Assembly: GCA_963718615.1 (NCBI GenBank)
Contig: OY970368.1
Coordinates: forward strand, 4,702,524 to 4,766,523
Source of the DNA: an uncultured cyanobacterium
GTDB lineage: Bacteria; Cyanobacteriota; Cyanobacteriia; PCC-9006; JAAUQQ01
Direction: 5' to 3'
DNA length: 64,000 nucleotides
Position 1 is the stretch's first letter. Each line of letters starts with the position of its first letter. A program made the position numbers and the translations under genes. Positions 8,285-24,362 of the stretch are shown piece by piece. The notes under the pieces were generated by a model that was not told the DNA's origin, searched no databases, and saw only the letters and a list, made by a program, of their open reading frames with translations.

Positions 8285-8376
8285 CGAGGCACCCCCTAAT
8301 TACCCTGTTCGTTGTGAACCAAATGCTTCAGGATTCTGGGACAATCAGGTTCAGAGAGAATAAAGGATCAAGACCG

Positions 8377-10074
8377 ATGCCAGAAAACCGCAGAAGCCAA
8401 ATCATCACCCAGGGCGTGCAGCGATCGCCCAACCGCGCGATGCTCCGGGCCGTAGGGTTTGGCGATGAGGATTTTACCAAGCCCATCGTCGGGGTCGCCA
8501 GTGCCCACAGTACGATTACGCCCTGCAATATGGGGATTGCGCCCCTAGCGGAGCAGGCAGAAGCGGGAATCCGGCAGGCGGGGGGCATGCCCCAGATTTT
8601 TGGCACGATTACGATTAGTGACGGCATTTCCATGGGCACGGAGGGGATGAAATATTCCCTGGTGTCGCGGGATGTGATTGCGGATTCGATCGAGACGGCC
8701 TGCATGGGCCAGAGTATGGATGGGGTGTTGGCGATCGGCGGCTGCGATAAGAATATGCCCGGTGCGATGATTGCCATGGCGCGGATGAATATTCCGGCAG
8801 TCTTTGTCTATGGCGGAACAATTAAGCCCGGTCATCTGGATGGCCAAGACTTGACCGTGGTCAGTGCCTTTGAGGCGGTGGGCCAGTACAGCGCTGGACG
8901 GATCGAAGAGTCGATGCTCTATGCGGTTGAGCGCAATGCCTGTCCGGGGGCGGGATCCTGTGGGGGGATGTACACGGCGAATACGATGTCCTCGGCCTTT
9001 GAGGCGATGGGGATGAGCCTGATGTATTCGAGTACGATGTCGGCGATCGATGCAGAAAAAGCGAAGAATACGGCGCTGGCGGGTCAGGTTTTGGTGGAGG
9101 CGATTCGCAATCAGATTTTGCCGAGGGATATTATTACTCGCCAATCGATTGAGAATGCGGTGTCGGTGATTATGGCGGTGGGGGGATCGACGAATGCGGT
9201 GTTGCATTTTTTGGCGATCGCCCACGCTGCTCAAGTCGATTGGACTATCGACGATTTCGAGCGCATCCGCGCCAAGGTTCCGGTCCTCTGCGATCTCAAA
9301 CCCAGCGGTCGCTATGTTGCGACGGATTTGCATCAGGCGGGTGGTATTCCCCAGGTGATGAAAATGCTGCTCAACCATGGACTGCTCCACCCGGACTGTC
9401 TGACGGTGACTGGGGAGACGATTGCTGAGCGGCTGCGGGATGTGCCGGATGAACCGACGCCCTATGAGCCGATCGCCGGACATCCGGTGATTCGTCCCTG
9501 GGATAATCCGATGTATGCCCAGGGTCACTTGGCGATCCTTAAGGGCAATCTGGCCACGGAGGGAGCCGTGGCCAAAATCTCGGGGGTGAAAAACCCCGTG
9601 ATCACGGGACCGGCAAGGGTCTTTGAATCGGAGGAAGATTGCTTGGCGGCAGTCCTCGACAAGAAAATCAATCCCGGCGATGTGCTGGTGATTCGCTATG
9701 AAGGGCCGAAGGGTGGCCCCGGTATGCGAGAAATGCTAGCTCCGACTTCGGCGATTATCGGTGCGGGGCTTGGCGATTCTGTGGGGCTGATTACGGATGG
9801 TCGTTTCTCGGGTGGGACCTACGGGATGGTGGTGGGCCATGTTGCGCCGGAGGCTTTTGTGGGGGGAACGATTGGCTTGGTCCAGGAGGGGGATTCGATT
9901 ACGATCGATGCGCCCCAGCGGTTGCTTCAGCTCAATCTTTCCGAGGAGGAGTTGGCGCAGCGACGGGCGGCTTGGACTCAGCCGGAACCGCGTTATCAGC
10001 GGGGGGTATTGGCGAAGTATGCGAAGTTGGTTTCGACGAGTAGTTTGGGGGCGGTGACGGATCGGGATCTCTAG
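8377..10074 (+). CDS. ilvD: Dihydroxy-acid dehydratase
   Basis: 565 aa from ATG 8377 ([33 protein letters not shown]...CDKNMPG...). Full-length IlvD/EDD family. The track ORF begins 21 codons earlier. Confidence 0.95.
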
Positions 10075-10081
10075 GCAAGCC

Positions 10082-10104
10082 GGGACATGGCAATGCCATG
10101 TCCC
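10082..10104. terminator. Perfect palindromic hairpin 8 nt after the ilvD stop; member of a dispersed hairpin repeat
   Basis: gggacatggc-aat-gccatgtccc, a 10-bp stem with a 3-nt loop. A second copy at 55453-55475 carries a compensatory T/A to G/C change. There is no clear T-tract on the plus strand. Confidence 0.5.
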
Positions 10105-10575
10105 TACGGGATTCATGATGAACGTCAGTGATGCCCAAAAGTCTTCTAGCCATCTAGCGGACTGCGAACGCTTCGGCCTCCGCGATTGAGCACATGGGTG
10201 TAGATCATGGTTGTCTTGACATCTTTTTGACCCAGACGTAGACCGCTACTGTAGAGAATCTGAATCATTAGCCGATAAACCCCAGACAGGTTCTTAATGA
10301 TTGCGCAAGTCTCATCAGTCTTGTCTGAACGATAAGAATTAATGTTTGAGACGCAAGGCTTCTCGAACCCTGTCTAGAAGCTTCTTTGGAGGTTTTTGCA
10401 TGGTAGTGTGATAAATCGAATAATTCGGCAGATCACCCTAAATGGCATGATATTCAGAATAATTCTGATGTACTCCTGGGGATATAGGTCAAAATTCTGC
10501 ATATCACCCCTCAGGGAGGCAATATACGGAAAACTCTGCATACTAAATTGTTAGAATTTTTCATGACACTTTTTC

Positions 10576-11028
10576 ATGACACTCCCCATTGCCAACCTAA
10601 TCATCCCGACTTGGGCCCTCTACACTACCAGTGGGCTCTTTGGGTTCCCCGTGATGCTGATCTTGGTGTCAATAGCTGAATCTGCCATCCTCATCCGTCC
10701 CAACTACCCTCACCACTCAGTCCCTCGCATCTTGGCTATGGTAACCATCGCCAATGCCGCCTCCACCATGGTCGGGATCCTCATCCTCGCCATGGCAAAT
10801 CCTCAACCACCCAGATCAGGTGATGCCGTCCTCGTACAAATCATCACGGCACCGACCATTATGGCCATATGCGCAATGTGCCTTGCCTCCTTCATCATTG
10901 AGGCCCTTGTCCTCTTCCCCACCCTGCCCAAGGCACCCAAGCTAGACCTGATCGTCTACATACTCTTTGCCAATATTGTCTCATACTCGGCCTTCTACCT
11001 CATCGTCTTTTGGATCGAATTGTTTTGA
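10576..11028 (+). CDS. Hypothetical integral membrane protein (about 4 TM)
   Basis: 150 aa, strongly hydrophobic, with no recognised family. It abuts the recombinase fragment. Confidence 0.4.
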   Translation: MTLPIANLIIPTWALYTTSGLFGFPVMLILVSIAESAILIRPNYPHHSVPRILAMVTIANAASTMVGILILAMANPQPPRSGDAVLVQIITAPTIMAICAMCLASFIIEALVLFPTLPKAPKLDLIVYILFANIVSYSAFYLIVFWIELF

Positions 11029-11080
11029 GAAATTTTTCCCAATTGAATCCTCTCCTTATCCCTTCAACCCCGTATCCAAA

Positions 11081-11320
11081 TTAACGTGAAGGCTTTGCCC
11101 GAAGGGCCTGAACATTTTCAAGTGGCTGTTGAAAAATCTCACGATAGAGAAATAAAACTGCACTTTCGGTCACGCCCATGTCCTTGGGATGTCGCTTGTT
11201 GTGAAACAGAATGTAACGCCGAATCCACTGAACGTAAGTTTGCTCTGTTTTGTAGGAATAGTGATTGAGTCGTAGGGCTACACGGACTTGATCTAGAAGC
11301 TTGGGGGGCTGGGATTGCAT
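11081..11320 (-). pseudogene. Integron-type tyrosine recombinase (IntI-like) N-terminal fragment, internally deleted and truncated
   Basis: LLDQVRVALRLNHYSYKTEQTYVQWIRRYILFHNKRHPKDMGVTE aligns with IntI1 [45 protein letters not shown] (Phage_int_SAM_4-type N-terminal domain). ...FLYREIFQQPLENVQALRAKPSR then aligns with IntI1 ...[24 protein letters not shown], skipping about 22 residues. A stop follows PSR and the catalytic domain is absent in every frame. Confidence 0.7.
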
Positions 11321-11415
11321 GGGAGCCGAGGATGAAGCCTCTGGGTTCCCTGACTCGGTGGTGAAGATTTTGTAATTTTCTACGCTGACTCAAATGGGGT
11401 GATTATACTGAGACA

Positions 11416-11650
11416 TGCCTGATAATACCTGTGTAGGGATGTTATCCGGCAGCGGTGCCGGGATAACGCCTAGAAATGGGTTGTTATCACGCACCTTCGC
11501 CTGATAATACCCAACCAGGGATGTTATCCAGCATGATTGCCTGGATAACTGGCTAAGACTGGGGATTATACGGCGTTGGCGCTTGAGAATACCCGGAGGA
11601 GGGAGTTATCAGGCATCGTGCATGAGAATAAGTTGTTATGCCGCTGAGTT
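11416..11650. repeat. Array of structured direct and inverted repeats next to the recombinase 5' end (att-like region)
   Basis: An approximately 85-bp unit occurs twice: gcctgataatacc-N7-gggatgttatcc-N12-ggataac(g/t). Further diverged copies occur once inverted (gagttatcaggc) and once as gttgttat(c/g)(a/c)cgc. The motif TATCAGG/CCTGATA recurs at 14265-14300. Confidence 0.5.
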
Positions 11651-11819: not shown

Positions 11820-12154
11820 ATGACAACCCTGCTTGTTCTTGGCAATATTAATCAGTTTACATTTGCAAACTCTGTAATCGCAGCTAACGCCAAGGCTGAG
11901 GAAATATTTGAGCAGGGTCTAACAAATATATTTGTTGTGCATTCAAGAGACTCCTATACCAAGCTAAAGAGTAATGAAGATTGGGTAGATCATGCAGAGG
12001 CAAATGGTGTAAGCCGAGAATTATTTGTTGATAAAATTGTTGAGATCACAGCAGAAGATGACTCAATTAAAAGATTCGTTGATTATATTGAGGGTAGTGC
12101 CTTTAGCTGGGGGATGAGTATGGTGTGGCCATTAGAGAAAGAAAAAGCAAACTG
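11820..12154 (+). pseudogene. 5' fragment of an AT-rich gene interrupted by the IS1-family element
   Basis: The ORF MTTLLVLGNINQF...SAFSWGMSMVWPLEKEKANW runs into the IS left inverted repeat. The tail after that is IS-derived sequence. It has the same strand and AT-rich composition as the ORF downstream of the IS. Confidence 0.4.
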
Positions 12155-12180
12155 GGTAAGACCCTTCTGTGCCAATTGCG

Positions 12181-12492
12181 ATGACTCAAGAGCTGCTTCA
12201 TTGTCCTAACTGTCTATCTGAAGATATCAGCCGTAACGGCTTCAACGATCGCGGTACTCAAAGCTATAAATGTCGAGATTGCCATCGCCGGTTTGTCCTG
12301 ACTCCGAAATCCCTTCCCTTGAGCGATGAAGAGATAGCCTTGCTCGAACGTTTATTGCTTGAAAGGCTAGCCATCGCTGGAATTGCTCGGGTGATGCAGC
12401 GCTCCGAGAGCTGCATTCAGACCTACGTCAACGCCAAAGCTAAAACCGTTGCTCGGGAGGTGGAAGTGACGAAGAAAGTAAAAAAGCTCTGA
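12181..12492 (+). CDS. insA: IS1-family transposase InsA (zinc-finger/HTH)
   Basis: MTQELLHCPNCLSEDISRNGFNDRGTQSYKCRDCHRRFVLTP... with a C4 zinc finger. Confidence 0.75.
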   Translation: MTQELLHCPNCLSEDISRNGFNDRGTQSYKCRDCHRRFVLTPKSLPLSDEEIALLERLLLERLAIAGIARVMQRSESCIQTYVNAKAKTVAREVEVTKKVKKL

Positions 12493-12500
12493 CGGTCCAG

Positions 12501-12941
12501 ATGGACGAACTCTGGTCGTTCGTGGACCATAAAGGAAATAAACAGTGGGTTTGGATTGCTCTAGATGCGGACACTCGCGAAATCATTGGCCTTTATATCG
12601 GGGACCGAAGTGCTAAATCTGCCGAAGCTTTATGGCGGTCTCTACCGGGAGTGTACCGCCAATGTGCAGTCATCTACACCGATTATTGGGAGAGCTATGC
12701 CTGTGTGCTTCCTAGCCAACGCCACCGAGCGGTTGGGAAAGAAAGCGGGCTGACGAGCTACATCGAGAGGTTCAACTGCACCCTGCGGCAAAGGGTGTCG
12801 CGCTTGGTCCGAAAGGCGCTCTCGTTTTCAAAGAAACAAGAGAACCACGAGGCTGCGATCTGGAATTTCGTTCACCATTACAACCAGCAATTGCGCCTTA
12901 AGCAGGCTCATACCGCTTCATTCTCTCCAGCACCCACATAA
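12501..12941 (+). CDS. insB: IS1-family transposase InsB (catalytic domain; normally made as an InsAB frameshift fusion)
   Basis: MDELWSFVDHKGNKQWVWIALDADTREIIGLYIGDRS... with the DELWSFV motif diagnostic of IS1 InsB. The frame is -1 relative to insA. Confidence 0.8.
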   Translation: MDELWSFVDHKGNKQWVWIALDADTREIIGLYIGDRSAKSAEALWRSLPGVYRQCAVIYTDYWESYACVLPSQRHRAVGKESGLTSYIERFNCTLRQRVSRLVRKALSFSKKQENHEAAIWNFVHHYNQQLRLKQAHTASFSPAPT

Positions 12942-13098: not shown

Positions 13099-14145
13099 TT
13101 GTTTGAACTAACTAAAGAAAGAGGCTTTCTGCCAACTGATATTTTGCTATCCTGCTATGCCCCAGTTCCTGATAGCACTAGACTTGATGGCATCGCCTAT
13201 CTAAATCTGTCAGAAATGGTACGCTACAGGAAAATTATAGAATCTCATACTAACAAGTATGTAGCCATAGATCCAAGTTCCTCTGATAGAGAGTTTTTCA
13301 AGGATAACTTGGGTCATTCTATTCAGTTAAAGTTACAAGGAGATCAAAGCAAAGATAACGCTATATATCGCATAGCGGCTTCATCAATTTCGGCAAGCGT
13401 GGAGGATCTAATTCGTCTTCTGGTGAGCAAATTTATCCTAGCTGATACTCCTGATGGAGTAGATCGCAAAACTTTTGGGCAAAAACTCAAAATTATTCAA
13501 GCCAAAATTGAGAAAGATGCGCCGTCTGACTTTGATATAGAGTTTTTTAGCAAGTTCAATGATTTCATTTTGTACTTGAGAAATAGTTCCACACATAAAG
13601 GTAAGCTTTTAACTGACTTGGAGAAGTTCAAGGCAGAGCTTTCTGTCAAAATGGCTTTTCCCTTTATTGAATTTTATACAGATATCGTGCATCCTTTGCT
13701 ATCAAGTGGTGAGCTTTCTAGAGAGCCAAAGCATATGAAAAAATTAACGTATGCTGATATAGCACCAGGAGACACCTTGTATTATGGGTTGGACGGAGAT
13801 GATACAGGAAAGATATTAGAAGAACTTTTTCTTGCCTGTAGCGATGAATCTAGCTTTCGGAAATTGAGCAAAGATGTAGCAAATGCGATTTCAAAAATTT
13901 CTAGATTTGTTACTGATAAGCTTGGTAAGAATGCAATTGTATTTGAGGCGGGTGACGATCTTTTGTTCAAGGGAAATTTTCAAGAAGATATGCTTTTGGA
14001 AATGCAAGCTATGTATTCACAATTAACACCTGGGCTAACGTGTTCAATTGGTTATGGGCGATCATTTCAAGAGGTATATTTAGCATTAAAACTCGCAAAG
14101 ACCCAGCCAGGTAAAAATGCTATTGTTGGAATTGAGCTTTGCTGA
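13099..14145 (+). CDS. Predicted HEPN-like (Rx4H) domain fused to minimal GGDEF/Cas10-like palm cyclase (mCpol-like); N-terminus truncated by IS1
   Basis: The C-terminal 150 aa carry YYGLDGDDTG (acidic metal-binding strand), FEAGDDLLF (aligns with GGDEF RYGGEEFVV and GGDD of Cas10) and LTCSIGYG (SxG strand). The N-terminal helical part has LRNSSTHKG (R-x4-H). The track start is a TTG; the frame is open for a further 147 nt back to the IS end at 12952 with no ATG. The region is AT-rich. Confidence 0.5.
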   Translation: MFELTKERGFLPTDILLSCYAPVPDSTRLDGIAYLNLSEMVRYRKIIESHTNKYVAIDPSSSDREFFKDNLGHSIQLKLQGDQSKDNAIYRIAASSISASVEDLIRLLVSKFILADTPDGVDRKTFGQKLKIIQAKIEKDAPSDFDIEFFSKFNDFILYLRNSSTHKGKLLTDLEKFKAELSVKMAFPFIEFYTDIVHPLLSSGELSREPKHMKKLTYADIAPGDTLYYGLDGDDTGKILEELFLACSDESSFRKLSKDVANAISKISRFVTDKLGKNAIVFEAGDDLLFKGNFQEDMLLEMQAMYSQLTPGLTCSIGYGRSFQEVYLALKLAKTQPGKNAIVGIELC

Positions 14146-14389
14146 GCTTGTCGCAGCATAACATAGGCCCTGAGCCGGACGGGGTCAATAGAGAAGATAA
14201 AAAATAACTCTGATGTAATGTCTGAGCGAATTGAAGCCAGCGCAAACCACCTGATAGTCAGTTTTGAGTATCAGCCGAACTGAGCTATCAGAGCCATCTT
14301 CGTATTTTTCGTATTCGATTGGTTCAAAACCTAAAGCAGTTCAATCGAGCAACAAAATAGAGACCTAAGCCGGTAAAAGAGCGACCAAA

Positions 14390-14790
14390 GGAGAGTTTTT
14401 GCGCCGGAGAGCAGCGAGATACTTTTCCTCATCATAAGGAGTCCTATCCTGCCAACACCGCCAAAGAATCCGACCCCCTTTATACGCCAAAGCACGAATA
14501 GCCTTTTGATGGGATTTACCCGCCAGTCGTTTTTGTTGATAAAATGCCTGTGACCAGACCGAGCGAGACCGAGCATGGGTGACCCACTCGACAAAAGTTT
14601 GCCTCAGAAAGATAGGACAAGACCAACGCCAATGGACCCAACGTTGCTTGCCAATTTCCTCCGCCTGAGGGGTGGCCTGAATAGTGGATTGTGCCCAGGT
14701 CTCATTCTGGCAATCGTAGAGAGCAATATCATGTTTGCGGTCTGTCCAATCAATGCCGATATAGGCAGCATAAACGGTTGTGAAGAGATT
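14390..14790 (-). pseudogene. IS110-family (DEDD) transposase relic
   Basis: Minus-strand translation gives YIGIDWTDRKHDIALYDCQNETWAQ...FYQQKRLAGKSHQKAIRALAYKGGRILWRCWQDRTPYDEEKYLAALRR. This joins an IS110 N-terminal IGIDxxK motif to a C-terminal Transposase_20-like tail. The middle is missing and there is no start codon. Confidence 0.45.
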
Positions 14791-15430
14791 AGGTCAAAGG
14801 TCTTTCCCTGCTCCCTGAGGATTCGTTAGGCAGCGAGCGGATGGGCTGGACGGGCGATTCGATTGGTTAGTAGTCATCTTCTGACTGGCGCTGCATAGTC
14901 GTCCCGACAATCTGGCAGATGCTCTCCTTTCTTGACTTTATGCGCTTCTGTCAAATTCGCGCATGGGAGAGGGATGAGCGATTCGGTATGTTCGTAGACA
15001 TCCTCTGTGTCGTCCAATGCATAGTCGTCTCTTCCTGGTTCTTCTTCCCCGTCCCCCATAAAGTCGATGAAGCGGACGGTTGGAAGATTTATTTTTGCGG
15101 GGATGCTGAGGTTGCCTGCCGCCGCTTGTCTTGGTCGTTAGACCGACAAAGCAAGATAGAGAAACAAGCAAGAGAATTTGAGTTTTCCGGTGTTGGAGAC
15201 AGTCTTGTGGCAGAATCAGCAGAACGCAATCAAGAAACTTCACCGACAAACTTGCAACGATCGCTGAATCAGAAACATGAAAAAGCCTTAGGGGACAAGC
15301 TGTATCAGACAGAAAGAAATAGATTCTTGTCAGTTCGTTCCCTGACCTTCTCACACTGCGCGTGTTTCCGCCCATCAGCATAGTTAATTAGGGTAAAATG
15401 AGAGGGCTGAGTTGAAATGAGGTCAAGCCT

Positions 15431-15703
15431 ATGACAGTTCGCCAACGACGGTATAGCAAGGAAGAGTTAGCCCGACGCGGACAAGAACTCTATGAGTCTG
15501 GAATTCGGCAGCAGGTTGAAGCCGGTAACGATGGAAAAATTGTGGCGATCGACATTGAAACCGGAGAGTTTGAGGTTGATGAAACGGTCATGGGTGCGAC
15601 CGATCGGCTATTTGAACGCCTGCCTGATGCTCAACCTTGGACGCTGCGAATCGGACACAGCGCCGTCTATCATTTTGGAGCGAGGAGTCTGAAGAAAGAT
15701 TAA
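15431..15703 (+). CDS. Small conserved protein, upstream partner of a retropepsin-like protease
   Basis: 90 aa (...GKIVAIDIETGEFEVDETVMGATDRLFERLP...). Its stop overlaps the next start as TAATG. Confidence 0.5.
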   Translation: MTVRQRRYSKEELARRGQELYESGIRQQVEAGNDGKIVAIDIETGEFEVDETVMGATDRLFERLPDAQPWTLRIGHSAVYHFGARSLKKD

Positions 15704-16071
15704 TGATTCGTGGAGTGGTTAATTTTCGCTATGAACTCATGCTTCCCCTTGTAGTCGGGAACTCGAATGGACAACGAGAGTTCGTCAATACCGTAATCGA
15801 TACTGGATTTGATGGGTTCTTGTCCTTGCCCTCTGAAATAATTGCTCGTCTTGAATTGCCTTGGAGGACTTCCAATATCGCGACCTTGGGAGATGGTAGC
15901 AAAACCCTGTTTGACTTTTACACCGGAACCGTCATCTGGGATGGTCAATATCGCTCGATCGACATTGCTGAATCAGAGACGGAACCCCTGCTAGGACTGG
16001 CAATACTTCGCGGATATCGATTGCAGGTCGATAATGTTGAGGGAGGTATCGTCGAGATTGATGCACTGTGA
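15703..16071 (+). CDS. Retropepsin-like (clan AA) aspartic protease
   Basis: MIRGVVNFRYELMLPLVVGNSNGQREFVNTVIDTGFDGFLSLP... with the D-T-G catalytic motif and retropepsin size. The start is at the ATG of TAATG; the track ORF starts at an out-of-context upstream Met. Confidence 0.65.
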   Translation: MIRGVVNFRYELMLPLVVGNSNGQREFVNTVIDTGFDGFLSLPSEIIARLELPWRTSNIATLGDGSKTLFDFYTGTVIWDGQYRSIDIAESETEPLLGLAILRGYRLQVDNVEGGIVEIDAL

Positions 16072-16273
16072 TTGTGTGCGAGAGTGATCGGTGAGGCGCG
16101 GTCTAACAATGCGATGGAGCGGCGAATAAAGTTTTTTCGCTTCGTTTCGGTTCTACTTGTCGCTGCTCATCTTCACCGTTGTGCCGCTGGTTTAAGGTGT
16201 TACTGTTTCTGAAGATTGATCGGTCACCTGCGAGAATTAATTACACATCGTTAGCTATATTGAAAGCACTTTT

Positions 16274-16816
16274 ATGTTAAAAGCTGGAAGGCTTACGACT
16301 TGGAAGGATGATCGTGGTTTTGGGTTTATCGAACCTGAAGATGGCAGCAAAGCCGTCTTCCTTCACGTCAGCGAAGTCAAGAATTTGAGTCGTCGTCCGC
16401 AGACTGGTGACACAGTTTTTTACGAGCCACGGGTTGAGAACAATGGGAAAGTGCGTGCAACTAAGGTCTCGATTCAAGGCGTTGCACCTCGAAGCATTAC
16501 ACCTCGAAATCAGCCTGTAGGTGGTCGGTTTCAACAGCGAATTGTCGAAACTGCCATCGCACTTGCCTTACTAATAGCGATTGTGGCTGTGGGCAGCCGA
16601 TTTGTGCCAAGCCGCTCTCCATCTCCTATAGCCGCAGTGACCAAGCCGAACTGCCAGATTAAAGGAAATATTTCGGTTTCATCGGGCAACAAGATTTATC
16701 ACCTGCCAGGGATGGAAGACTATGCATCGACTGTAATTGATGAAGGCGCTGGAGAGCAGTGGTTTTGTTCTGAGTCAGAGGCGATCGCGGCAGGGTGGAA
16801 GAAGGCTCCTCGCTAG
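16274..16816 (+). CDS. Cold-shock-domain protein with TM segment and conserved Cys-containing C-terminal domain
   Basis: N-terminus WKDDRGFGFIEPEDGSKAVFLHVSEV (CSD-like), a hydrophobic helix AIALALLIAIVAVG, and C-terminus CQIKGNISVSSGNKIYHLPGMEDYASTVIDEGAGEQWFCSESEAIAAGWKKA. Confidence 0.55.
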   Translation: MLKAGRLTTWKDDRGFGFIEPEDGSKAVFLHVSEVKNLSRRPQTGDTVFYEPRVENNGKVRATKVSIQGVAPRSITPRNQPVGGRFQQRIVETAIALALLIAIVAVGSRFVPSRSPSPIAAVTKPNCQIKGNISVSSGNKIYHLPGMEDYASTVIDEGAGEQWFCSESEAIAAGWKKAPR

Positions 16817-16925: not shown

Positions 16926-17240
16926 TTGTTTAGAATTATAGGCATGGACGTTTATTGTGTGCTGAATGGCATTACATTTATCTGGAATCCAGAAAAGGCC
17001 CGGATTAATCCAGTCAATCATGATGGGATTACCTTTCAGCAAGCGGCTGAGGCATTTTTTGATCCATTCCTGATTCTGGTTGATGCCAGTCGCAACGATG
17101 AAGCAAGAGATGCCGTGATTGGCCTGGATACACGCTATAACTTGCTTTATGTCGTGCATATTGAGCAAGAGGGTGATTGTATTCGGATTATTTCTGCGCG
17201 TAAAGCAACCCGACAAGAGAGGATGAACTATGAAAGTTGA
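16926..17240 (+). CDS. brnT: BrnT-family ribonuclease toxin (DUF497)
   Basis: ITFIWNPEKARINPVNHDGITFQQAAEAFFDPF...RIISARKATRQER matches the BrnT pattern FxWDxxKAxxNxxKHGVxFxEA...RIISARKA. The start may be the internal Met at 16944. Confidence 0.7.
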   Translation: MFRIIGMDVYCVLNGITFIWNPEKARINPVNHDGITFQQAAEAFFDPFLILVDASRNDEARDAVIGLDTRYNLLYVVHIEQEGDCIRIISARKATRQERMNYES

Positions 17241-17523
17241 AGCCTTAAAGAAAAGATTGGATAAGAATCGACCTATGAGCAGCGTAACGATTCGGATGCC
17301 GGAAGATGTCGTGGAAGACTTGAAGCGAGTTGCGCCATTGTTAGGCTTTTCTGGATATCAGCCATTGATTCGGGCTTACATCGGCCAGGGATTACGTGCT
17401 GACTTGGAGCGATTTGAAGGTGAGATGGTGAGTGCGTTGATTGCCAGCTTGAAGCGACGGGGTGTGAGCGATACCGTAATTGATGAAGCGTTGAGAGAGG
17501 TTGTGCCAGCGGTAGCCAGTTAA
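17230..17523 (+). CDS. brnA: BrnA-family antitoxin
   Basis: 97 aa (MKVEALKKRLDKNRPMSSVTIRMPEDVVEDLKRVAPLLGFSGYQPLIRAYI...). It overlaps brnT by 11 nt and has the BrnA-type CopG-like fold signature. Confidence 0.7.
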   Translation: MKVEALKKRLDKNRPMSSVTIRMPEDVVEDLKRVAPLLGFSGYQPLIRAYIGQGLRADLERFEGEMVSALIASLKRRGVSDTVIDEALREVVPAVAS

Positions 17524-17749
17524 TCTGTGTTTACCAGCAGTACAACAACTTGGATGCAGCGGACTCGCAGGATTGATCACTAATGGACGTAGCGTAGCTT
17601 CGAGCCGCTGATCAAAAACGTTAGTGTTCAAAATCACGAAGCAACAACGCAAGTTTGAGCTTGTGCATGAGATTTAGATTTCACTACAATTTCCACATCT
17701 CGCCCCAAAGCATTGAGAAAGCGAAAGAATCGTGCGGTCGAAAAACCTG

Positions 17750-18001
17750 CTAGTGTTCCTTGGTTCGTTTCAGTCTTGCTTCGATCAGGTCAATATCCTG
17801 CCTAGGCGTAGCAATCCCTTGCTTTGATTTTTTCTGGAAAGCATGTAAGACGTAGACCCCTCCAGCCAGTTTTACCGTGTAGACGGCTCGATATCCCTTC
17901 CGGCTCAGGCCAGTGGAAAAGGCATGTTGCCTCGGTGTTCCCAGCTTTAACAGGTTGCTGATACGAGTCCTTGGTCTCCGCAACTGTTTCCAGTAACACA
18001 T
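17750..18001 (-). CDS. RelE/ParE-superfamily toxin (HigB/Gp49-like), apparently orphan
   Basis: ...GYRAVYTVKLAGGVYVLHAFQKKSKQGIATPRQDIDLIEARLKR matches the conserved C-terminal core of Gp49/HigB-like toxins. No HTH antitoxin ORF lies downstream; only a 15-codon remnant, MHKLKLALLLRDFEH. Confidence 0.6.
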   Translation of the reverse strand: MCYWKQLRRPRTRISNLLKLGTPRQHAFSTGLSRKGYRAVYTVKLAGGVYVLHAFQKKSKQGIATPRQDIDLIEARLKRTKEH

Positions 18002-20225: not shown

Positions 20226-23200
20226 TTAGAGGGTAAAATGATTGGCATGAATCGTAAAGGCATTGACATTTAGCAGTATCGCAACTTGCTGCAAGCTGCC
20301 GCCCACCTCTGCCTGAATAATCGTATTTAATCCCAATTGTTGAGCCTGAATTATTGTTCCAAAAGTGGAATTGCCATGATAGATCGCATTGAGATCTAGG
20401 CGATCGAAGAGAATTTCAAAATCCAAAATCGTATCGCCATAGTCTTGTGTTGATTCGTAGAGGAAGCGATCGCTTCCCTGTCCACCCATCAAGATATCGC
20501 TACCCAATCCCCCAACTAATAAATCATCACCATTGCCTGCCTGCAGAATGTCATTACCACTGCCACCGTAGAGACTATCATTGCCGCTGTTGCCATTTAA
20601 AATATCATTGTCATTGCCGCCATCAATCCAGTCATCACCACTGCCCCCCGTAATCAGATCTTTGCCATCTTCCCCTAGAATGCGATCGTTTCCACTCCCC
20701 CCGTTAACCACATCATCTCCGGCTCCAGCCCGAATTTGATCAACTCCGCTTCCCCCATTGTTAATATCATCGCCATTGCCCCCAGCAATTTCGTCTGCTT
20801 CACTTCCTCCATTGATAATGTCGTTGCCATGACCACCATCAAGCAAATCGTTATCGCTCAGGCCACTGAGTATATCATTGCCCTCGGTTCCCGTAATGAC
20901 ATCAGCACCACCGCCTGTGGGGCCGGAAGGAGGTTGGGGAGGATTGGGCTCAATTTGAATCGTGACCGTTGCAATTTTGCCGTTCACCCAATAGGTCAGC
21001 GTATCGGTCCCTATGAAATTCGAATTAGGGATGTATTCAAGCTGATTATTTTGATTGATTGAAACGCTGCCATGGGTCGGCGCGAGTTGAATTGAAAGGG
21101 GGCCTTCTAAGGGATCATTGGCCAGAACATCAATGATTGTTTTGGGAGAATTGGCCTTAAGCTTTGCAGTGTCGTCTTGGGGAAAAGCATCGACTGTCAA
21201 AGTGCTAATAGCCGTATTACTATTAGCTGTTCCGTCATTGAGCTTTAGGGTAAAGATGCGATCGCCTAAGGTTGGTTTTGAGGCAGTGTTACTGTAGGTA
21301 AGCGATCGCAAGAGTTCATCTACATCGGCTTGTGATAAATCACCACCACCACTTTTGGTAATCGTGATCGTTGAGCCACTATCGATCATCGAAACAGAAA
21401 AGCTGGTAGAGCGATTGGGAACCGTTACGCTTTGACTACTGTTTGTATTCAGGGGCAACTCAAGGTTGCCAATCTTGAGGATTTCATGAGGACCATTTGC
21501 CAGGCCAGAGACCGCTATTGTGATGGTTTCAATATCATCGCCGCTGGGATCTGAGCCGGTCGCTCGAAGCGGGTCAGCGATCGTTGCCGCCGCTCCCCCC
21601 GCAACGAAGGTGCTGCTGTAGTCAACGCCAGACTGACCCTCGTTGCCATTTCCATTGAGGTCAAGGATAGGTGGCTCGTTGGCATCGGGAATGCCGTTGC
21701 CATTGCCATCCTTTTGAAACGTGACAGTGAAAGTTTTGATGCCGGATGATTTTGTATCAGTTTCTTGAGGGCTATTAAAGAGCTGATCTCCATCTAAATC
21801 TGTTTGATCCAGACTTATACCCTCTAGTTCTAAACTCAATAAACCGACAAATTCTGGAGGAGGAACCAGGATTAAGCCTGCCAAGTCTTCGGGGGTAAAG
21901 ATCCAAGTATTACTGCCTTGCTTACTGCCAATTGATGTTGAATCCTTGGTAAAGGTAAAGCCATCCGGCACATTGCGAATTGTATAGATTAGGGTTTCTG
22001 AACCATCTGTATCCGCAGGGGTACTGCCCGTGAGCGATAGGGCAATCGGCTGGTTTTGAATGCCTGTTGCGCTGATTGCTGTCACGCTGGGTATTTCGGC
22101 GATGGGTAGCACTGTGACTGTGACCGTAGCAGGCTTACCGTTAACGCTATAGGTGAGACTATCTACGCCACTAAAGTGAGGATTAGGTTGATATTCAATC
22201 TCGTTATTATTGTTGACGAGAGCCGTGCCTTGGGAAGGTTCGGATTGGATAGAAACAGAGCCATTGAGTGGATCGTTAACTAATACATTGATGACGGTAC
22301 TGCTTGCATTTTCTTGAACGGTAATCGTATCGTCTTGGGGAAACGCATCGACGGTGATGGTGCTAACAGCGAGGTTACTGTCGGCTGTTCCGTCGTTGAG
22401 TTTGATTAAAAATGTGCGATCGCCCAAGGTTGGCGTAGATGCCGTATTTTTATAGGAGAGCGATCGCAGAACCGCTTCAACTTCGGATTGGCTCAGATCG
22501 CCACTGCCATCTTTGGTTATTGTAACTTTCGTTCCATTGTCTGTAATCGCAATAGAAAAAGTTGTCCCGCTATTTGGTAGTACAAAACTTTGACTGGTGT
22601 CAGCATTGAGTGGAAACTCAAGATTAGCAATCTCGAAAACTTCATTGGCTCCATCGGTAAGGTTGGTGATGGCGATCGTAATTTTTTCAATATCGGGTTC
22701 GTTAAAATCGCTGCCTGTTGCGTTCGTTGGACTGGCGATCGCAATAGCGCTGCCGCCCGCAGTAAAGGTTGTAGAATACCCATCTCCAGAATTAGCTGAG
22801 CCATTTAAATCTAGAACTGGCGCAACGTTATCAACTCCATTAATCGTAATGGTAACGGTCGCATCATCGGTGCCACCTCTGCCATCGGATACGGTATAAA
22901 TAAAGCTATCTTTTGCGGTTTGACCACTGGTCAAACCATTAAACTTGCCATTGGGATCATAACTATAAGAACCATTCGCATTGACCGTGAGCAACGCTCC
23001 TGATGACAACGTTATTTGCTGGCCAACTGCCGTAATCTGACCATTGACGGCTGCAACCGTGAGGGGATCTCCGTCAGGATCAAAGTCGTTCGCTAAAATG
23101 CCTGCGGCATTGACATTGAGCACAACATTTTCATTGGTAAGGCCCGTATCTCCGCCCGTCGTGATTAAATTGGTAAAGTTAAATTGTCGATTGCCATCAA

Positions 23201-24362
23201 AGATAAAACCTGATTGCTGAAATTCAGCAGTCAATAGGATTTCAAAAGAAGTCTTATATTCATAGTTAATTTGAAGTGCAAACTCAGGATCATTATCGTT
23301 TCCAGGGTTTTGAGAATTGTTCGGATCGTTATTTGCTGTTGAGGTAAAAACCAATTGGCCGTTGGACGGAGAGAGGAGCAGTTTAGTGGGCGCATTTATA
23401 CCGTAGGTTGATACCTCGGACTGCGATACCGTGACAGAGCCAGAAAGACTACTATCTCTTTTGTCTAAATCTTTTATAGTAAAACTAGAAGAAATCGGAA
23501 CTGAAGTTGTTGTACCAGCCTCAAAAAATTCAAACTTTAGTTTGGCTGTGGTAACCCCAGAGATTGCTGAGTTCGAAAAGTTAAATTTGGCATCATCGCC
23601 AGCAACTGTAAAACTTGTTGTTCCCGTATCTGTTGTTTCGATCAGCGTCAGGCGAACATCTACGACGGTTCCATCTTTTGTAATACCGGCATTCTTGTAG
23701 AGGGCAACTGTTCCGGCTTTACCCATTTGACCATTGCCACCGGGATGACTCAGTGTGGGTGAGGAGAAGCTGAGATTAATCGCGTTAAATGTACTCGCAT
23801 TACTGGCATCTGGAGCGATCGGTCCTGTATTTGTGGGCAGGACATGGGGATAGGCAATAATTTCTTCTTTGACAAAAGCAAACTCTTCTAGGGGATTGCC
23901 CAGATGAGTGTCTAACGTCCAATTGCCTCCTAGCTCTCCAGAACCGATTAGCGTACTAGAAGCAGAAAGACTAGCTCCGGTTAACTGATGGAGTTTTTCT
24001 AGAAACTCTGCACCGGCGTCACCGACAGCCACTCGACAGCCATATATCGAAATTGAGCTGATGGACCAACTTTCTAATACTGCTTCGTAGAAAGCAAGCG
24101 TTTCCAAATTGAGCTGACTTTTGCCTAATAGGAGAGATCCGGGTGAGCCATGGGAAATAATATAGATATGGGGTTTTGACTCAGGCGATCGCGCCTTCAA
24201 AATCTCAGTGATTTGGAAAACACCATCGTCTTCACCCTTGAGAACATGAACCTCTATATTCGGTTTGATGGCATACAGCAGTAGCTCATACTGCTCTACT
24301 GTCGAATCAAGAAAAGCAATTGATGTTTGGATAGGCATGCTAGATAGACCTCGACAATACAC
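20226..24362 (-). CDS. Giant secreted repeat protein: N-terminal DUF4347, two tandem about 330-aa cadherin-like modules, C-terminal RTX repeats
   Basis: The N-terminus IAFLDSTVEQYELLLYAIKPNIEVHVL...IYIISHGSPGSLLLGKSQLNLETL...IYGCRVAVGDAGAEFLEKLHQLTGASLSAS matches DUF4347. Internal paralogous modules are PVLDLNGSANSGDGYSTTFTAGGSAIAIA... and PILDLNGNGNEGQSGVDYSSTFVAGGAAATIA.... The C-terminus has GGSGNDRILGEDGKDLITGGSGDDWIDGGNDNDIL nonapeptide repeats. Confidence 0.8.
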   Translation of the reverse strand: MYCRGLSSMPIQTSIAFLDSTVEQYELLLYAIKPNIEVHVLKGEDDGVFQITEILKARSPESKPHIYIISHGSPGSLLLGKSQLNLETLAFYEAVLESWSISSISIYGCRVAVGDAGAEFLEKLHQLTGASLSASSTLIGSGELGGNWTLDTHLGNPLEEFAFVKEEIIAYPHVLPTNTGPIAPDASNASTFNAINLSFSSPTLSHPGGNGQMGKAGTVALYKNAGITKDGTVVDVRLTLIETTDTGTTSFTVAGDDAKFNFSNSAISGVTTAKLKFEFFEAGTTTSVPISSSFTIKDLDKRDSSLSGSVTVSQSEVSTYGINAPTKLLLSPSNGQLVFTSTANNDPNNSQNPGNDNDPEFALQINYEYKTSFEILLTAEFQQSGFIFDGNRQFNFTNLITTGGDTGLTNENVVLNVNAAGILANDFDPDGDPLTVAAVNGQITAVGQQITLSSGALLTVNANGSYSYDPNGKFNGLTSGQTAKDSFIYTVSDGRGGTDDATVTITINGVDNVAPVLDLNGSANSGDGYSTTFTAGGSAIAIASPTNATGSDFNEPDIEKITIAITNLTDGANEVFEIANLEFPLNADTSQSFVLPNSGTTFSIAITDNGTKVTITKDGSGDLSQSEVEAVLRSLSYKNTASTPTLGDRTFLIKLNDGTADSNLAVSTITVDAFPQDDTITVQENASSTVINVLVNDPLNGSVSIQSEPSQGTALVNNNNEIEYQPNPHFSGVDSLTYSVNGKPATVTVTVLPIAEIPSVTAISATGIQNQPIALSLTGSTPADTDGSETLIYTIRNVPDGFTFTKDSTSIGSKQGSNTWIFTPEDLAGLILVPPPEFVGLLSLELEGISLDQTDLDGDQLFNSPQETDTKSSGIKTFTVTFQKDGNGNGIPDANEPPILDLNGNGNEGQSGVDYSSTFVAGGAAATIADPLRATGSDPSGDDIETITIAVSGLANGPHEILKIGNLELPLNTNSSQSVTVPNRSTSFSVSMIDSGSTITITKSGGGDLSQADVDELLRSLTYSNTASKPTLGDRIFTLKLNDGTANSNTAISTLTVDAFPQDDTAKLKANSPKTIIDVLANDPLEGPLSIQLAPTHGSVSINQNNQLEYIPNSNFIGTDTLTYWVNGKIATVTIQIEPNPPQPPSGPTGGGADVITGTEGNDILSGLSDNDLLDGGHGNDIINGGSEADEIAGGNGDDINNGGSGVDQIRAGAGDDVVNGGSGNDRILGEDGKDLITGGSGDDWIDGGNDNDILNGNSGNDSLYGGSGNDILQAGNGDDLLVGGLGSDILMGGQGSDRFLYESTQDYGDTILDFEILFDRLDLNAIYHGNSTFGTIIQAQQLGLNTIIQAEVGGSLQQVAILLNVNAFTIHANHFTL

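Follow-up and report, generated by a model that had tools for sequence, protein, structure and literature searches.

Features of the locus

We analysed a 64-kb stretch of DNA (hereafter the window) from a 6.10-Mb contig of an uncultured cyanobacterium, centring on a 79-residue open reading frame (ORF) that resembles the N-terminus of an integron integrase (IntI). This ORF, called here the intI-A remnant, lies in an island of low GC content near ilvD. A second piece of integrase debris, the intI-B remnant, lies between the two, and each remnant has an attI-like region upstream of its start. An array of small genes with attC-like sites follows. The features nearest to the two remnants are listed below.

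8314-10074, plus strand: ilvD (dihydroxy-acid dehydratase), convergent with intI-B, the end of which is 71 bp from the ilvD stop codon; the last gene collinear with a related locus (L004)
10146-10401, minus strand: intI-B remnant, delineated by six-frame translation of 10050-11420 and tblastn; stop codon at 10148-10146
10402-10556, plus strand: attI-B-like region, from alignment with other intI upstream regions; putative core GTTAGAA at 10550-10556
10576-11028, plus strand: hydrophobic ORFan of 150 aa, without Pfam or NCBIfam match
11081-11320, minus strand: intI-A remnant, consisting of IntI codons 1-52, a 23-codon in-frame deletion, residues ~76-103 and a TAA stop
11321-11641, plus strand: attI-A-like region, from repeats, palindromes and alignment with other intI upstream regions; putative core GTTATGC at 11635-11641

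A truncated integron integrase gene

The product of the 79-residue ORF, MQSQPPKLLDQVRVALRLNHYSYKTEQTYVQWIRRYILFHNKRHPKDMGVTESAVLFLYREIFQQPLENVQALRAKPSR, matched the Pfam domain PF13495 (Phage_int_SAM_4, E=8.4e-15) with residues 8-51 on profile positions 1-44. The only NCBIfam models matched were two of integron integrases, TIGR02249 ('integron integrase'), which placed residues 8-52 on profile positions 1-45 at E=8.2e-14, and NF011946 (E=2.1e-12), and no XerC or XerD model reached E<=1 in this profile search. Among all PDB chains, the sole match at E<=1 was IntI4 of V. cholerae (2a3v, 1.4e-9). Query residues 9-58 corresponded to chain residues 6-55 and query residues 53-68 to chain residues 73-88, so that about 22 chain residues were skipped. 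By their E-values, the matches to IntI are far beyond chance.

A tblastn search with the IntI references P0160 and P0126 gave a single alignment over intI-A, running from 11320 to 11093. P0126, the reference on which the mapping rests, is itself a genuine IntI, as it scores 496 bits with TIGR02249 against a cut-off of 265. The alignment contained one 23-residue in-frame gap, placed after 'GVTE', with the deletion junction between 11165 and 11164. Past the gap it resumed through '...LFLYREIFQQPLENVQALRAK' / '...ALRAK' and reached reference residue ~100. The homology ended at 'RAKPSR', and the TAA stop was found three codons past the aligned end. An earlier note on this ORF had described an IntI-type match of about 45 residues, a skip of about 22 residues, a re-alignment and a termination. 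The tblastn, TIGR02249 and 2a3v alignments agree with that description, and the profile comparison it proposed, IntI against XerC/D, returned only IntI models and an IntI structure.

The tyrosine-recombinase catalytic domain (R-K-H-R-H/W-Y) is missing from intI-A, which ends near residue 103. IntI residues ~140-289, which include most catalytic residues and the IntI-specific patch, had no tblastn match in any frame of the whole 64 kb. Correction of a frameshift, which the earlier note had named as a possible refutation, would therefore not restore a recombinase in the window. The IntI additional domain (the IntI patch) is deleted in both remnants, of which about 25% and 27% of the gene are left. 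We accordingly filed intI-A as IntI-derived rather than as an IntI protein, because the patch region is gone from both remnants. Its TIGR02249 score (51.7 bits) also lies under the curated whole-protein cut-off of 265 bits, and the catalytic domain is lacking. Judged by its sequence, intI-A is not an IntI protein on any of these three counts, while its descent from IntI is supported by the signatures at both termini of the remnants and by the surrounding attC and attI-like sequences. We hold with high confidence that it is a pseudogene that preserves the 5' third of an integron integrase gene without any catalytic residue.

The effect of the deletion on the fold was examined with AlphaFold2. 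The model of the 79-residue ORF had a mean predicted local distance difference test (pLDDT) score of 55 and a predicted template modelling score of 0.35, and its only helices were at residues 8-18, 23-39 and, as a short one, 55-62. The undeleted relative P0003, modelled with a 24-sequence alignment comparable to that used for the ORF, had a mean pLDDT of 81.7 (about 90 across the domain). It showed four confident helices at residues 8-18, 23-39, 50-62 and 68-85. Within the N-terminal domain, the intI-A deletion thus removes helix 3 and the leading half of helix 4, so that the fragment is unlikely to fold as a SAM-like domain.

A second integrase remnant

The intI-B remnant, which the earlier note had overlooked, is located 680 bp from intI-A on the same strand and keeps its own start codon. 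Its first piece, B1 (10401-10342), begins with the ATG at 10401 and comprises codons 1-20, with 80% identity to residues 1-20 of P0160. A 1-nt insertion after B1 leads to a TAA at 10341-10339, and the frame-shifted continuation, YSYRSDKT, corresponds to residues 21-28. The second piece, B2 (10316-10233), covers residues ~112-139 with part of box I, 'YSSGLRL'. The third, B3 (10235-10152), covers residues ~290-317 with box II and the catalytic Tyr, '...MIYTHVL'. The tblastn E-values of the intI-B pieces were 1.8e-6, 7.4e-7 and 1.8e-8. TIGR02249 was the top match of the C-terminal ORF (3e-11, 43.2 bits against the cut-off of 265, profile positions 285-313), and the Xer models scored 5e-3 or worse.

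The N-termini of A and B1 are identical at 18 of 28 residues, and their DNA is about 73% identical over 50 nt. With sequences so diverged, recent duplication is ruled out as the origin of the pair. The second remnant also qualifies what had been said of the first. The catalytic domain is indeed absent from the 79-residue ORF, but scraps of box I and of box II with the catalytic Tyr persist in intI-B, 0.7-0.9 kb away.

Candidate attachment sites

The regions upstream of A and B aligned with the intI upstream regions of four other loci (L082, L083, L084 and L086). They have in common TTAT.CGG-type repeats and an A/T-rich run that closes, shortly ahead of the first cassette ORF, in a GTTA-type core. 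Also common to the A and B upstream regions and to the intI upstream regions of related loci is GGGRTGATTATACTGA, a motif read as TATAAT on the intI strand. In the attI-A-like region it occurs as the conserved motif GGGGTGATTATACTGAG, with TATAAT on the intI strand at 11407-11402. The context of the putative attI-A core (11635-11641) is AATAAGTTGTTATGCC. That of the putative attI-B core is AAATTGTTAGAA, at 10545-10556, with the counterpart AATAAATAGTTAGCC in L083. Similarity and position thus suggest attI roles for both upstream regions, and core sites within them.

The attI-A-like region is about 315 bp long, compared with about 150 bp in B and in L083, and the excess amounts to two extra copies of an 82-bp unit. 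It is built as about three such units, as seen from the 82-nt spacing of a repeat family. There are five direct repeats of the GGGWTGTTATCMNGCA type. The GGGATGTTATCC-type repeats carried by the 82-bp unit are enriched, with 5 matches against 0.78 expected. Palindromes are formed by GTTATCC at 11441-11447 with GGATAAC at 11461-11467, and by GTTATCC at 11523-11529 with GGATAAC at 11543-11549. The folding z-scores of the region were -4.0 and -4.4. Three 69-bp GGATAAC...GTTATCC palindromes beside intI-A had been considered as empty attC sites. They scored 12.2 bits with the attC model R2 described below, and their spacers are 10 nt long instead of 5. Because of these two properties and the alignment of the region with the attI regions of relatives, they were re-read as amplified attI. 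The repeats are similar to the integrase-binding direct repeats of attI1, which we take as a lead and not as a test.

The 150-aa hydrophobic ORFan starts 21 nt behind the attI-like core of intI-B. A search among 5.8 billion proteins returned only the ORFan itself. With this position, and with neither family nor homologue, it is probably the first cassette of integron B and not a replacement of the catalytic domain of A. The earlier note had placed a membrane-protein ORF where the catalytic domain should be. The ORF does lie just beyond the end of the 79-residue ORF, but a reading as the first cassette behind intI-B suits it better. No match to the attC model was found between 10556 and 11320, hence none behind the ORFan, which would place a deletion junction between 11029 and about 11090.

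Two further observations were made on these regions. The ATG of the ORFan falls within a perfect 13-bp tandem duplication (two copies of TTTTTCATGACAC, 10557-10583), which begins directly behind the putative core of attI-B. At two of the related loci, palindromes resembling the CTGT-N8-ACAG LexA box lie between the intI start and attI (TACTGTGTATCTAATAGTAC in L082 and TACTGTGTATTTAATAGTAC in L084). By this resemblance, SOS control of intI would fit these loci. No equivalent palindrome was seen upstream of the intI remnants in the window.

attC sites

To find attC sites, we used a covariance model (R2) built from 13 aligned sites at other loci, and scanned the window with filters off. The training sites were canonical attC from arrays beside intI in other genomes, which avoids circularity. 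The three best matches in the window were all on the cassette strand and inside the 11-18 kb low-GC island.

16101-16184, plus strand: secure attC, with R'' GTCTAAC, spacer AATGC, L'' GATG[G]AGCGGCG, L' GTCGCTGCTCATC and R' GTTGTGC
17540-17627, plus strand: probable attC, borderline by score, with R'' GTACAAC, spacer AACTT, L'' GGAT[G]CAGCGG[A]CTCG, L' CGAGCCGCTGATC and R' GTTAGTG
15058-15138, plus strand: doubtful degenerate attC-like site, R2 score 13.1 bits, E=1.3, within the control background

The site at 16101-16184 was matched over its full length with 43.3 bits (E=2.2e-7), was also the top match of the heuristic scan of the whole window, and has an extrahelical G in L''. It begins 30 nt behind the TGA (16069-16071) of the plus-strand ORF 15637-16071. 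The site at 17540-17627, also matched over its full length, scored 16.5 bits (E=0.23). All 13 of its 13 arm pairs are formed, two extrahelical bases lie on the R''-L'' arm, and the site starts 17 nt past the brnA stop. For comparison, held-out genuine attC sites scored 16-28 bits, and the maximum in 96 kb of control DNA, also scanned with filters off, was 14.9 bits. An arm-pairing heuristic, from the matches of which the 13 training sites were taken, gave 32 matches on the expected strand against 5 on the opposite one in 179 kb upstream of other intI genes, and covariation was confirmed on a larger trimmed set of attC sites. One secure site, one borderline site and one within the background are thus suggested by these scores.

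In L083, a related cyanobacterial contig, the segment 5187-7288 (minus strand) holds a truncated intI followed by cassettes that encode a pEK499_p136-like protein, PIN/HicB and DUF433/DUF5615. A 'TGGAGCGGCG...GCTTCGTTT' pattern is common to its three canonical attC sites and to the window site at 16101-16184.

Other approaches were discarded. A simple scan for RYYYAAC...GTTRRRY combined with folding gave equal match density all over the window and was uninformative. The model R1, with trimmed arms, did not span the variable attC centre and returned only noise, and was replaced by R2. An inverted repeat (14169-14183/17895-17909) considered as a 'split attC' was at chance level for the size of the region and had the wrong spacing.

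Cassette genes

Between about 10.1 and 18.2 kb, GC drops from about 58% to 37-50%, and the array ORFs lie on the strand opposite to intI. The genes with assignments are as follows.

11820-12209, plus strand: ORFan of 129 aa, first cassette behind the putative attI-A; no family match; 3' end overlapped by the IS1-family element
12169-12941, plus strand: IS1-family insertion sequence (IS), with an InsA-like Zn-ribbon ORF at 12169-12492 (PF03811, 1.1e-8) and a DDE_Tnp_IS1 ORF at 12501-12941 (PF03400, 3.2e-21)
13099-14145, plus strand: mCpol-domain protein gene (Pfam PF18182, 3e-38; NF033576, 134 bits against a cut-off of 40)
16274-16816, plus strand: cold-shock-domain protein (Pfam PF00313, 9e-12)
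16926-17240, plus strand: BrnT toxin (PF04365, 3e-21)
17230-17523, plus strand: BrnA-like antitoxin (PF14384, weak match)

The cargo of the island, with its ORFans, the BrnT/BrnA toxin-antitoxin pair and the IS, is typical of cassettes. An ORF resembling a clan-AA aspartic protease is also present. The IS1-family element, whose two ORFs are in adjacent frames, has inserted into the first cassette behind the putative attI-A. The mCpol (minimal CRISPR polymerase) protein has 348 residues, with the mCpol domain at its C-terminus and an uncharacterised N-terminal region, and its gene lies in the part of the array with the lowest GC content (37.5%). It may possibly be a defence-type cassette. Beyond the last attC-like site lies a truncated Gp49/HigB-like toxin gene (17750-18001, minus strand), which matches only profile positions 51-90 of PF05973. 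This fragment suggests that decayed cassettes continue as far as about 18.2 kb.

A likeness of the minus-strand ORFs at 14331-14800 to a transposase C-terminus found no support in Pfam or NCBIfam. Rfam and tRNA scans of the window gave nothing. A second low-GC stretch (about 44-48%, 20-25 kb) is separate from the integron island and holds the gene for a 1378-aa DUF4347/cadherin-like/RTX-repeat protein (20226-24362, minus strand).

Related loci

Each window protein that was looked up was a singleton at 90% identity. A scan of genome contigs for ilvD gave 80 loci, a set from which the source genome and close strains were absent. The best matches were in metagenome-assembled genomes of Leptolyngbyaceae and Elainellaceae, with 82-83% identity. 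L004 was the sole collinear ilvD locus, sharing eight upstream genes and remaining collinear up to the ilvD stop codon. There was no integron downstream of ilvD in L004. None of the 80 other ilvD loci had an intI, and none of the 83 other intI loci had an ilvD.

In other filamentous cyanobacteria (L081, L082 and L083), truncated intI remnants head small-gene arrays rich in toxin-antitoxin pairs. The lesions differ from one relative to the next: the L081 remnant has lost 19 residues, that of L083 is frame-shifted and that of L082 is fused to a C-terminal scrap. Intact full-length intI relatives were abundant in a metagenome scan. The first homology searches had returned only proteins of <=140 aa and had raised the idea of a family of truncated IntI proteins. 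This was rejected as a bias of retrieval and partial contigs, as most of the genes in the metagenome scan were full-length.

Two metagenomic loci were observed besides. In L152 (2096-4051), two full-length intI genes stand in direct tandem, 13 nt apart. In L149 (2484-4513), an intact intI is followed at about 1 kb by a stray C-terminal fragment of IntI. The window is thus not the only place where intI copies occur in tandem or as fragments. In six IntI homologues (P0126, P0128, P0134, P0141, P0148 and P0150), two or three tandem N-terminal SAM-like domains precede the catalytic domain. These are probably the fused clade described as '~120 aa longer' by Nemergut et al. 2008.

Origin and state of the integron

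Taken together, the locus is very probably a fossil chromosomal integron that carries two tandem integrase wrecks and was inserted behind ilvD in a cyanobacterium resembling Leptolyngbya. On the plus strand, the proposed order would be ilvD, the intI-B wreck (minus strand), attI-B, the ORFan cassette, the intI-A wreck (minus strand), attI-A enlarged by the 82-bp units, and the array. Past attI-A would come the co-oriented, GC-poor array, in which an IS1-family element is inserted and at least one attC is intact. The succession of decay events that led to this arrangement is something we infer. In the live integron, cassettes would have been inserted and excised by IntI through recombination between folded attC sites and attI. 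The local platform is now dead, as neither intI remnant can carry out this recombination, and only an integrase from another part of the genome, acting on the attC sites that survive, could still move the cassettes. The earlier view of the remnant as the fossil of a recombination module is thus strengthened, since it heads a real cassette array with an attC at 43.3 bits. The further claim that the cassettes are immobile holds only in cis. Without its own integrase the locus no longer recombines by itself, but one attC at least looks intact, and an IntI elsewhere in the 6.1-Mb genome could mobilise cassettes in trans.

Several points weigh against this reading. No sister strain that might show the intact ancestral state of the site was found in the databases. 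The attI sites are putative, having been assigned from similarity and position only. Just one attC is statistically secure, and the second, at 16.5 bits, is barely over the control maximum of 14.9. The IntI additional domain, the usual diagnostic of IntI, is deleted. Finally, intI-A retains an ATG and an open frame, and public annotation calls a gene there (P0001), so a small peptide may be expressed.

A possible, though unlikely, variant of the fossil reading touches the history of the locus only. A (1-103), B2 (112-139) and B3 (290-317) might once have been one intI, later split by the ~760-bp segment 10317-11080. That segment would have brought one cassette together with the attI and the first 28 codons of a different intI. 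The end of A near residue 103 and the start of B2 near residue 112 are nearly contiguous in IntI coordinates, and the divergence of B1 from A (18/28 residues, about 73% DNA identity over 50 nt) would also fit. However, B1 is in frame with B2 and B3 after the 1-nt insertion, as expected of one gene with in-frame deletions, and repeats or insertion scars flanking 10317-11080 are absent. The tandem genes of L152 and the stray C-terminal fragment of L149 also make neighbouring genes unexceptional.

We give a small chance to the proposal that the two diverged intI-attI modules, in tandem directly behind ilvD, reflect repeated seeding of one chromosomal site by successive platforms, or uptake of a second platform by the array of the first, as an integron within an integron. 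Such a history would have a counterpart in Xanthomonas arboricola, where intI is inferred to have been replaced at the ilvD locus in some strains. If seeding or capture did take place, the 3' flank of ilvD or the resident array would be a landing site for whole integron platforms.

It is very improbable that the 79-residue ORF is a functional, domesticated IntI derivative limited to the N-terminal domain, such as a regulator that binds attI or attC. The intact start codon, the open frame and the gene call would suit such a protein, and many N-terminal-only IntI-like ORFs are annotated in filamentous cyanobacteria (P0049, P0057, P0095 and P0015). Yet the loss of helix 3 and half of helix 4, with a pLDDT of 55 against 81.7, speaks against it, and this architecture occurs in no other protein (P0001 is a singleton cluster). 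The truncated relatives L081, L083 and L082 are broken at different points by different lesions, which argues for neutral decay and not for a conserved short form. The excess of short matches came from the retrieval bias noted above, whereas the DNA-level scan found mostly full-length intI.

There is only the slightest chance that the fragment derives from a tyrosine recombinase of phages or of the generic XerC/D type. The SAM-like N-terminal domain PF13495 is a general one, common to many tyrosine recombinases, and the IntI-specific patch is deleted. No Xer model, however, matched A at E<=1, while two IntI models did so at 1e-12 to 1e-14, the sole solved-structure match was IntI4, and attC and attI-like repeats lie alongside. 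As for a sequencing or assembly artefact masking an intact integrase at the site, nothing was found in its favour and we regard it as next to negligible, since the lesion is a lack of about 650 bp of coding sequence and not one frameshift, IntI residues 140-289 are unmatched in any frame of the 64 kb, and the source contig spans 6.10 Mb.

Comparison with known integrons and implications

A very probable fossil integron with two wrecked integrases has several counterparts. About one third of surveyed intI genes are pseudogenes, and more than one intI is present in one fifth of lineages (Nemergut et al. 2008, PMC2426708). The window remnants resemble those pseudogenes in their inactivation by stop codon, frameshift or major deletion. 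That survey took sequences with the IntI additional domain, whereas both remnants here are without it.

Most intI genes of Xanthomonas are also pseudogenes (bioRxiv 10.1101/2025.06.18.660453). According to the summary given in that preprint, nearly all Xanthomonas integrons have ilvD as neighbour (Gillings et al. 2005). As far as that summary goes, the likeness to the window lies in the position directly downstream of ilvD, the inactivated intI and the different intI lineages at the same locus. Xanthomonas differs in being a gammaproteobacterium, and the window, from a cyanobacterium, shows two diverged tandem wrecks and erosion that has gone much further. The sharing of ilvD as neighbour is probably a coincidence, because the pairing recurs at none of the 83 other intI loci and none of the 80 other ilvD loci.

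Clusters of attC sites lacking integrases (CALINs), occasionally with neighbouring intI pseudogenes and IS elements, are also known (Cury et al. 2016, PMC4889954). The window resembles a CALIN of IntegronFinder in having an attC cassette cluster without a working integrase, integrase debris within a few kb and an IS inside. A CALIN needs two attC sites, whereas the window has one secure, one borderline and one within the background. In that study, 95% of CALINs had no recognisable intI pseudogene nearby, in a screen that needed >50% coverage of the IntI C-terminal profile. Such a screen would probably miss the window remnants, because they keep mainly the N-terminus and a C-terminal scrap of about 30 residues.

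The V. cholerae integrase VchIntIA/IntI4 (2a3v) is the sole solved structure with detectable similarity, through its residues 6-55 and 73-88. It is a complete and active recombinase of 320 residues, whereas the fragment has no equivalent of residues 51-72, nor of those from ~100 onwards.

Decayed integrons of this kind are common and have been described before. The significance of the locus is limited; it offers a clear, well-anatomised view of the late stages of integron decay, from a cyanobacterial lineage that has been little sampled. In annotation, both the 79-residue 'gene' and 10146-10401 should be labelled as fragments of pseudogenes. More widely, the origin of further orphan cassette clusters may come to light if the N-terminal domain is used in searches.

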